A stretch of 64,000 nucleotides of DNA from contig JAVRCJ020000035.1 of NCBI GenBank assembly GCA_034530875.2, forward strand, positions 1 through 64,000. Direction: 5' to 3'. Within the stretch, counting starts at the first letter, position 1. Every line of letters begins with the position of its first letter. Origin of the DNA: Nostoc sp. DedSLP01. GTDB lineage: Bacteria > Cyanobacteriota > Cyanobacteriia > Cyanobacteriales > Nostocaceae. Made by a program: the position numbers and the translations under genes. The notes under the pieces were generated by a model. It worked only from the letters and a program-made list of their open reading frames with translations, ran no database searches and was not told the origin of the DNA. Of the stretch, positions 5,663 to 6,795 are shown one piece after another.

Positions 5663-6220
5663 ATGGTTCTTGATGCTTTTTCCAGAGCTGTAATTACAGC
5701 AGATGCTAAAGGTGCTGCTATTGGTGGTGCTGACTTAGATGCCCTCAAGGGTTTCATTGCTGCGGGCAACAAGCGCCTTGATGCTGTAAATGCGATCGCT
5801 AGCAACGCTAGCTGTGCTGTTTCTGATGCTATTGCTGGTATCGCTTGCGAAAACACTGGTTTGCTGCAATCCGGCGGTAACTTGTACCCCACTCGTCGCC
5901 ACGCTGCTTGTCTGCGTGATACCGAAATCATCCTGCGCTATGTAACTTATGCATTGTTGGCTGGTGATTCTTCCGTATTAGACGATCGCGCTATCAACGG
6001 GCTAAAAGAAACCTACACAGCTTTGGGAGTTCCCATTAGCTCTACTGTACGTGCTGTGCAAATCCTCAAAGCTATCGCTGTTGCTCACATCACCAACACC
6101 AACACTGAAGCTAACGCTGGTAAAAAGTTCCGCAAACTAGACGTTATCCCAGGCGACTGCTCTGCTCTAGCTGCTGAAGCTGCTAGCTACTTCGATCGCG
6201 TTATTTCTGCTCTGAGCTAA
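5663..6220 (+). CDS. cpeB: Phycoerythrin beta subunit (divergent, sulfur-poor)
   Basis: [34 protein letters not shown] and [10 protein letters not shown]; bilin-binding Cys at 51/62, 83 and 166; AAGGAG RBS. Confidence 0.93.
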
Positions 6221-6300
6221 TAGCTCATAGTTAACGGCTATTTAGCCAAACGAACGTGAAATCAAAACTCGATCAAATCTCATCTGGAGTATAAAAAGCA

Positions 6301-6795
6301 ATGAAATCAGTTATCACCACAGTTGTTGGAGCTGCTGATGCAGCAGGTCGTTTCCCTACCACCTCTGACCTAGAATCCGTTCAAGGTAGCATTCAACGTG
6401 CTAGTGCTCGTCTAGAAGCTGCTGAAAAGCTAGCTTCTGGTATCGATGCTGTAGCTAAAGAAGCTTACGATGCTGCTTTTAAGAAATATCCTTACTTGAA
6501 CCAAGACGGTGAAGCTGGCGACACCCAAGTTAAGAAAGATAAGTGCCTTCGGGACATCAAGCATTACCTACGCTTGATCAACTACAGCTTAGTTGTTGGT
6601 GGTACCGGCCCATTGGATGAGTGGGGTATTGCAGGCGCTCGCGAAACATATCGCTCTTTGGGTCTGCCTACTGCTCCCTATGTTACCGCTATGACCTACA
6701 CCCGCGATCGCGCTTGCTCTCCTCGCGACTTGTCTCCTCAAGCGTTGACTGAGTTCCGCGCTCTCCTCGACTACGTAATCAACTCCCTGTCATAA
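6301..6795 (+). CDS. cpeA: Phycoerythrin alpha subunit (sulfur-poor)
   Basis: [22 protein letters not shown] (Cys82), [19 protein letters not shown] (Cys139); 164 aa. Confidence 0.95.

Follow-up and report, generated by a model that had tools for sequence, protein, structure and literature searches.

The window, by which we mean the whole 64,000-nucleotide stretch of DNA analysed here, lies in a genome that is 99.8% complete (G000 in the following). On its forward strand it carries cpeB (5663-6220), encoding a phycoerythrin beta subunit of 185 aa, and cpeA (6301-6795), encoding an alpha subunit of 164 aa. Both products score above curated NCBIfam family cut-offs (CpeB 304.5 against 275 for NF058508, CpeA 301.2 against 225 for NF058506), and the nearest named protein relatives are labelled Nostoc. 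Lyase genes, nblA and a cpcG-type linker gene make up the neighbourhood. They comprise an nblA-like gene for a phycobilisome degradation adaptor (5156-5323, forward strand, NCBIfam match under cut-off), a HEAT-repeat lyase subunit gene which is CpeZ-like by position and presumably encodes CpeZ (7039-7647, forward strand, sub-cut-off NCBIfam HEAT matches only), a HEAT-repeat lyase gene which we take to be CpeF-like (7782-8690, reverse strand), cpeY (11732-13006, forward strand, above the NCBIfam cut-off), a gene which we assume to encode a CpcS/CpeU-type lyase-like protein (4240-4836, reverse strand, without NCBIfam match), and the cpcG-type rod-core linker gene (2327-3094, reverse strand, NCBIfam matches under cut-off). 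Three more rod-linker genes are found elsewhere in the genome on contig C18. Short tandem repeats of GGGAGGTGT type and TGACTAA type occupy the gap between nblA and cpeB (5384-5520) and positions 3450-3690; such repeats are common in heterocystous cyanobacteria. A promoter and terminator scan was uninformative (8 sites versus 5.4 +/- 2.3 expected by chance).

CpeB contains Met1, Cys51, Cys62, Cys83 and Cys166 (cysteine codons at 5813, 5846, 5909 and 6158, forward strand) and no other methionine or cysteine. CpeA contains Met1, Cys82, Met131 and Cys139. Both compositions agree with the first-pass annotation, which had read CpeB as free of internal Met with exactly four bilin cysteines, and CpeA as having two cysteines and one internal Met. 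The four cysteines of CpeB and the two of CpeA are the retained bilin sites, assigned by conservation and by the customary residue numbering. Adjoining genes were said to keep their sulfur residues, and they do: the CpeZ-like protein has 4 internal Met and 1 Cys, the CpeF-like protein 5 Met and 1 Cys, CpeY 10 Cys and 2 Met, the CpcS/CpeU-type protein 2 Cys and 5 Met, and the nblA-like product, a low-abundance control for sulfur content, 2 internal Met. The cpcG-type linker has no Cys and no internal Met.

Low sulfur content is not the norm for CpeB. Among the best 120 of 1860 homologues plus the window protein (121 rows, a set skewed toward similarity to the window protein), 114 rows hold 4-11 non-bilin Met/Cys and 7 hold 0-1. 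When the 114 sulfur-richer rows are used as background and the 7 low-sulfur rows are excluded, five Met/Cys columns are conserved at 95% or more, namely M60, C74, M80, C110 and M135. All are non-bilin and all five are replaced in the window protein, versus 4 of the 97 other columns with that conservation (Fisher p=1.5e-6), and the outcome is unchanged at thresholds of 70-90%. The replacements lie between 5840 and 6139 on the forward strand: M60I (5840), C74L (5882), M80H (5900), C110A (5990) and M135L (6065), with a further change, M159L (6137). C74 and M80 adjoin the beta-82 bilin cysteine in sequence. Of the substitutions proposed earlier, those at the five conserved columns hold up. SCMVS to SCAVS does not, its column (position 52) being Met in only 9 and Cys in 25 of the 121 rows, and M159L, where 85 of these 121 rows (again the best 120 of 1860) have Met, had been overlooked. 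Targeted loss of dispensable Met and Cys is supported for CpeB. An extra Val2 codon (5666-5668, forward strand) makes the protein start MVLD instead of MLD. NCBI and UniRef records often label CpeB 'bleomycin hydrolase', and because of this label it is missed by searches by name.

CpeA is weaker evidence of sulfur loss than CpeB. The earlier description of it as sulfur-eradicated stands for C59A and M144L (cpeA, 6301-6795, forward strand). It overreaches in that the family ranges over 0-6 non-bilin Met/Cys, with counts of 0-2 common, in that, of 55 background sequences, only 32 have Cys59 and 43 have Met144, and in that Met131 was gained (51 of the 55 have Leu there).

G000 has one each of cpeBA, cpcBA, apcAB, apcD and apcF. 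The second, sulfur-rich cpeBA that the first-pass annotation thought might exist was sought by tblastn, phmmer and Pfam search, and none of these revealed a second or sulfur-rich cpeBA or cpcBA in the genome. Across 127 genomes of the genus we surveyed the codon pattern at CpeB residue 74. A non-Cys74 allele (Leu codons in the matches listed) occurs once per genome in 94, a Cys74 allele occurs in 12 and neither in 21; by this pattern no genome of the 127 has both. In full CpeB sequences, 33 of the 36 genus genomes read have 0-1 extra sulfur residues, and the other three (G009, G021 and G035) have 7 each. In the cpeB and cpeA trees the genes of these three are placed among Fremyella-type genes from other genera, which suggests later replacement of their cpeBA by transfer. 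Extra cpeBA copies in G061, G076, G157 and G087 are not lean. At loci L069, L070, L071 and L072 an additional, divergent cpeBA pair (three such pairs in G087) lies inside lyase clusters; these pairs, not lean either, group with genes of other families. A draw of 401 genomes from the phylum, many of them probably without phycoerythrin, gave lean-pattern matches in 8 members of the genus and one match with an in-frame stop. RNA-library contigs from four studies include cpeB and cpeA of relatives; they carry no level, condition or sulfate status. Judged from sequence, the cpeBA of the window is the ordinary and only C-phycoerythrin of a Nostoc, apparently rebuilt to minimise sulfur cost.

The depletion extends to much of the remaining antenna. 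Non-bilin internal Met/Cys in G000 number 0 in CpeB, 1 in CpeA and 0 in each of CpcB, CpcA, ApcA, ApcC and ApcF. Linkers have none in the case of both CpcC, CpcG and a CpeC-like protein; two further phycoerythrin linkers have 2 and 5 (the start of the latter is uncertain). Exceptions are ApcB (3 Met), ApcD (3), CpcD (2) and ApcE (9 in all). The depleted genes are unlinked and spread over five contigs. In the genus, 14 of 18 genomes read have a CpcB without Cys110 and with 0-2 Met. Several Cys and Met are retained by a lone phycobiliprotein-like ORF of G000 (C4:222336-223163), which lies near pebAB-like genes and cpcBA.

Orthologue controls were drawn from six genomes, with 57 of 69 rows kept and 12 dropped by hand (antisense ORFs, duplicates, fragments). 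Genome-wide sulfur depletion of G000, considered as a candidate, was not seen across the 57 rows. Twenty-nine translation proteins of G000 hold 105 Met/Cys versus 105-113 in four comparators; the values are 23 versus 24-26 for ATP synthase, 18 versus 17-27 for GroEL/ES, 26 versus 22-26 for Rubisco, 11 versus 11 for CP47, and 28 versus 33-40 for PsaA plus PsaB, with 17 in G023. Counts for PsbC and PsbD were discarded because of unreliable start sites and partial loci. The supposed specificity of the depletion relative to other abundant proteins is borne out for translation, ATP synthase, GroEL/ES, Rubisco and CP47; it fails for phycocyanin, the linkers and ApcA, ApcC and ApcF, which are equally stripped, and in part for PsaA and PsaB. 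PsaA holds 8-19 Met/Cys where CpeB is lean (ten genus genomes) and 21-23 where it is not (seven); the association is a hint only, because most of the seven form one subclade and some genera combine a low PsaA count with phycoerythrin that is rich in sulfur (12 in G154, 13 in G067). G023 (loci L377, L372 and L180) is extreme: its PsaA has 2 Cys and 6 Met in 751 columns, where others have 12-26, its PsaB has 9 Met/Cys and its ApcB 1 internal Met.

Some further features of G000 may be recorded here. Contigs C19, C1, C16, C58, C79 and others encode many repeat-rich proteins of 400-1800 aa without Cys or internal Met, which are probably secreted. A cluster of monooxygenase- and dioxygenase-like genes (C51:12000-28000), four of them without Met/Cys, looks like a candidate for organosulfur scavenging. 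At C5:338539-340873, rbcL has 19 Met/Cys versus 14-16 in most of the genus, and rbcLXS groups, with weak support, with G015 outside the genus clade; transfer is possible.

Lean phycobiliprotein subunits are one residue longer at the N-terminus. All 34 low-sulfur CpeB have a small second residue, versus 9 of 58 other CpeB; the corresponding counts are 32 of 32 lean versus 14 of 35 other CpcB, and 37 of 39 lean versus 5 of 28 other CpcA. These sequences are related and so not independent, and significance computed from them is overstated. The residue is Val in the beta subunits of Nostoc and cpc3, Pro or Thr in Pseudanabaena CpeB, Thr or Ser in lean CpcA, and Thr or Ala in CpeA of genus g64, and a small second residue is also seen in sulfur-richer proteins. 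Methionine aminopeptidase removes Met1 before a small second residue. By this rule Met1 of the window CpeB, followed by Val2, should be removable. The window CpeA begins MK, an exception to the pattern, and probably retains its Met1. The phycocyanin chains of PDB 6JPR are one residue short of the gene products (residue 1 is not displayed and the sequence is gene-derived), which is compatible with Met removal.

Lean alleles also occur outside the genus. The Nostoc-type lean CpeB is common to genera g69 and g77, and three Pseudanabaena genomes with sulfur-rich phycocyanin and allophycocyanin have a lean CpeB and no other. The traits are only loosely coupled: Pseudanabaena and g77 combine lean CpeB with rich phycocyanin, and g32 and g46 show the reverse. 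A pattern scan of contigs returned 3 Pseudanabaena cpeB among 6 matches; it is incomplete, because G099 fits the pattern yet was missed. A corresponding scan of metagenomes gave 1 cpeB in 40 matches. The cpeB of G099 (L077, 607-1164) is a mosaic: in codons 1-45 it resembles its own genus (37 of 40 codons identical), and the remainder is a foreign lean core, with residues 46-95 identical to the Pseudanabaena protein at 49 of 50 positions. From this mosaic we conclude that the lean CpeB type evidently reached G099 by recombination. In the same protein Asn replaces bilin Cys62, which would leave a single cysteine at the doubly linked chromophore site. Three independent origins of lean CpeB, considered at one stage, were dropped, since the data are compatible with a single origin of the lean core (p-AU 0.535); for that reason lean CpeB may count as one event.

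For phycocyanin, nine other genera contain extra lean cpc operons (16 genomes in all); these operons make up a single clade, which we equate with cpc3 because one member clusters with PHCB3_MICDP. CpeB is sulfur-rich in all 11 of these genomes that were read. In the best tree cpcBA of G000 and Nostoc falls outside the cpc3 clade, with sulfur-richer housekeeping operons, and the Nostoc cpc linkers also group with the housekeeping operon. Grouping Nostoc cpcBA with cpc3 is not significantly worse (p-AU 0.10-0.27), and the statement that it is simply not cpc3 was dropped. Codons 104-142 of cpcB, a tract picked post hoc which holds C109A and M134L, side with cpc3: 7 of the 11 cpc3-shared sites fall inside it, versus 1 of the 23 sister-shared ones, with p-AU 0.011 against the sister grouping for this post hoc tract and 0.19 against the cpc3 grouping for the flanks. 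Gene conversion from cpc3 into Nostoc cpcB may have occurred. The near-lean cpcBA (1+0) of genera g64 and g39 (L142, L143, L144, L147) forms a branch of its own beside a sulfur-rich sister, perhaps another origin.

Inducible sulfur sparing by a phycocyanin is known from cpc3 (Mazel and Marliere 1989; Gutu et al. 2011; as related in the parts available of PMC4424289, PMC4357790 and PMC9855382). The cpc3 operon of Tolypothrix/Calothrix PCC 7601 (Fremyella diplosiphon) shares with the G000 antenna the restriction, in subunits and linkers alike, of Met/Cys to the bilin cysteines, the homologous replacements of Cys109 by Ala and Met134 by Leu, and the small second residue. The restriction to chromophore cysteines is complete in CpeB, CpeA retaining Met131, and extends to the two CpcC, CpcG and CpeC-like linkers (none each) but not to the second (2) and third (5) phycoerythrin linkers. 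The arrangements differ. In cpc3 an extra phycocyanin is induced according to sulfate beside sulfur-rich copies, whereas the lean genes of G000 are its only copies, one cpeBA and one cpcBA, and the pairing of lean and sulfur-rich CpeB alleles is absent from all 127 genus genomes. Genomes with cpc3 retain sulfur-rich phycoerythrin; the lean set of G000 includes phycoerythrin and part of the core. The idea of a phycoerythrin counterpart of cpc3 therefore stands for composition and kinds of replacement and falls for a spare copy beside a sulfur-rich one. What sets the G000 genes apart from cpc3 is a cpc3-like composition in single copies. The beta subunit of Pseudanabaena C-phycoerythrin, PHEB_PSETP (P0152), shares the four cysteines only, the lack of internal Met and the small second residue; it differs in its Fremyella-like ends and in the sulfur-rich phycocyanin and allophycocyanin of Pseudanabaena genomes. 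Ordinary C-phycoerythrin (PDB 5AQD, 7F86, 7AP5) shares family, the four beta and two alpha bilin cysteines and the lyase neighbourhood, but keeps M60, C74, M80, C110 and M135 and starts MLD.

The phycocyanin of Nostoc sp. R76DM (PDB 6JPR) is nearly identical to CpcA and CpcB of G000. The available part of its 2019 structure paper (PMC6614406) lists 12 substitutions, five of which remove Met or Cys (alpha C98A, beta M79A, M86L, C109A and M134L), and suspects a Nostoc-specific evolutionary pressure whose cause it leaves unnamed. That part of the text contains neither 'sulfur' nor 'methionine', has 'sulphur' in a species name only and does not treat phycoerythrin. The literature searched, mostly outside subscription papers, gives no account of a sulfur-depleted phycoerythrin or a fixed lean Nostoc antenna, and PMC11702589 holds nothing relevant to lean phycoerythrin. 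An earlier remark on it is possible, because the sequences have long been public and subscription papers lay mostly outside the search.

The probable explanation, in our view, is a hard-wired economy of sulfur in the most abundant proteins, common to most of the genus. With no sulfur-rich spare, the lean form would be used whenever the antenna is made, under control by light or hydration rather than by a sulfate switch. The constitutive adaptation suggested by the first-pass annotation fits the single copy; it was drawn too narrowly, the trait being spread through most of the genus and reaching beyond phycoerythrin, and selection on sulfur would be its putative basis. The added Val2 would let methionine aminopeptidase hand Met1 back to the cell. 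A rough model with six rods, each built from one hexamer of phycocyanin and three of phycoerythrin (stoichiometry and comparator ApcD and ApcF assumed, rod linkers and start Met excluded), gives 216 versus 1496 dispensable sulfur atoms per antenna, or 1042 versus 2322 including bilin cysteines. On this model the lean build would save sulfur on each copy without a switch, about half of the antenna protein sulfur, a saving that would be large because the antenna is so abundant. The selective cause may be a chronic lack of sulfate in habitats fed by rain (soil, crust, lichen and moss), acting on a nitrogen fixer with a heavy Fe-S demand, and lean segments would also have spread via recombination. 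According to PMC5913679, functions for the uptake of sulfonate and sulfate are enriched in the genomes of symbiotic Nostoc. Against sparing speak the Met residues kept in ApcB (3), ApcD (3) and CpcD (2), the Met131 gained by CpeA, the loose coupling between lean CpeB and lean phycocyanin, the possible single origin of the lean CpeB core, the small second residue of some sulfur-richer proteins, the low PsaA counts of some genera whose phycoerythrin is rich in sulfur, and the 12 genus genomes with the Cys74 allele, three of which were read and are sulfur-rich.

Met and Cys oxidise readily, and they may have been removed for that reason, guarding the antenna in drying and strong light on land. 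This is unlikely in view of what took their place: mean His is 1.32 in lean versus 1.02 in rich CpeB, Trp stands at 0.91 in Nostoc CpcB versus 0, and M80H brings an oxidisable His next to a bilin site. Lean CpeB is also found in Pseudanabaena, a freshwater plankton genus, CP47 is unaltered (11 versus 11), and the extra second residue is better accounted for by Met recycling. Such protection would suit proteins that, like the affected ones, bind or neighbour pigments, and the available part of PMC13079394 describes a desert Nostoc that relies on phycoerythrin made around dawn rehydration. The substitutions could also tune spectra or subunit packing, with sulfur loss as a by-product, given that C74 and M80 stand beside the beta-82 bilin cysteine in sequence and that the near-identical R76DM phycocyanin absorbs at 611 nm, about 10 nm to the blue, with changes clustered at the monomer interface (PMC6614406, part available). 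Tuning is improbable, because pigment-free linkers and ApcC are stripped too, because the same part of that paper ascribes the shift to the shape of the beta-153 chromophore and regards the remaining changes as compensatory, and because Met or Cys is lost in five of the 12 substitutions that it lists.

Equally improbable is the view that the lean allele is an old, nearly neutral clade trait that arose once and was inherited without ongoing selection. The unrejected single origin of the CpeB core (p-AU 0.535), scattered Met gains (CpeA 131, CpeB 90) and the survival of sulfur-rich alleles in a minority of the genus would fit it. It does not lead one to expect a loss aimed at sulfur columns (5/5 versus 4/97), its occurrence at unlinked loci on five contigs, further loss in some lineages (G023, with 2 Cys and 6 Met in PsaA and 1 Met in ApcB) or the import of a lean core into G099. 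An inducible second phycoerythrin copy for sulfate starvation, the direct cpc3 counterpart raised by the first-pass annotation, matches cpc3 in composition and kinds of replacement and is nevertheless the least credible reading, hardly to be entertained unless a sulfur-rich cpeBA lies in an assembly gap: one cpeBA and one cpcBA are present in the 99.8% complete genome, none of the 127 genus genomes has both alleles, CpeB is sulfur-rich in all 11 genomes read that have an extra lean cpc operon, and the extra cpeBA of G061, G076, G157 and G087 are not lean. BG11 medium is sulfate-replete. Indirectly against expression in starvation only, the lean R76DM phycocyanin was purified and crystallised from BG11-grown cells (PMC6614406, part available), and cpeBA of N. 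flagelliforme, whichever CpeB allele it carries, depends on SigB1/CpeR1 (PMC13079394, part available).

Hard-wired sparing remains our preferred reading. As to its history, we put forward tentatively, and with more doubt than confidence, that core Nostoc fixed a plastic sparing response by three events acting jointly. As parts of this joint and equally tentative proposal, part of the inducible cpc3 gene would have been copied into housekeeping cpcB at codons ~104-142 and the spare operon lost, a sulfur-free phycoerythrin cassette would have recombined between distant lineages, and selection would then have stripped linkers, core, photosystem I and start Met. If true, this would be a genetic assimilation of elemental sparing throughout a photosynthetic apparatus.

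Textbook elemental sparing is an inducible phycocyanin; here it would be fixed, single-copy, and inclusive of phycoerythrin and most of the antenna. The question why most cyanobacteria keep sulfur if a lean antenna works becomes testable. One genus contains both lean alleles (94 genomes) and Cys74 alleles (12 genomes), one of its members has gene-knockout tools, and if the fixed-response history is true these coexisting alleles offer a ready test of benefit and cost; the codon of CpeB residue 74 is a simple marker to survey against habitat sulfate. If sparing is the cause, it would explain the Nostoc-specific substitutions left open in the available part of the 2019 structure paper (PMC6614406), and sulfur would long have been limiting for a dominant terrestrial and symbiotic nitrogen-fixing genus.
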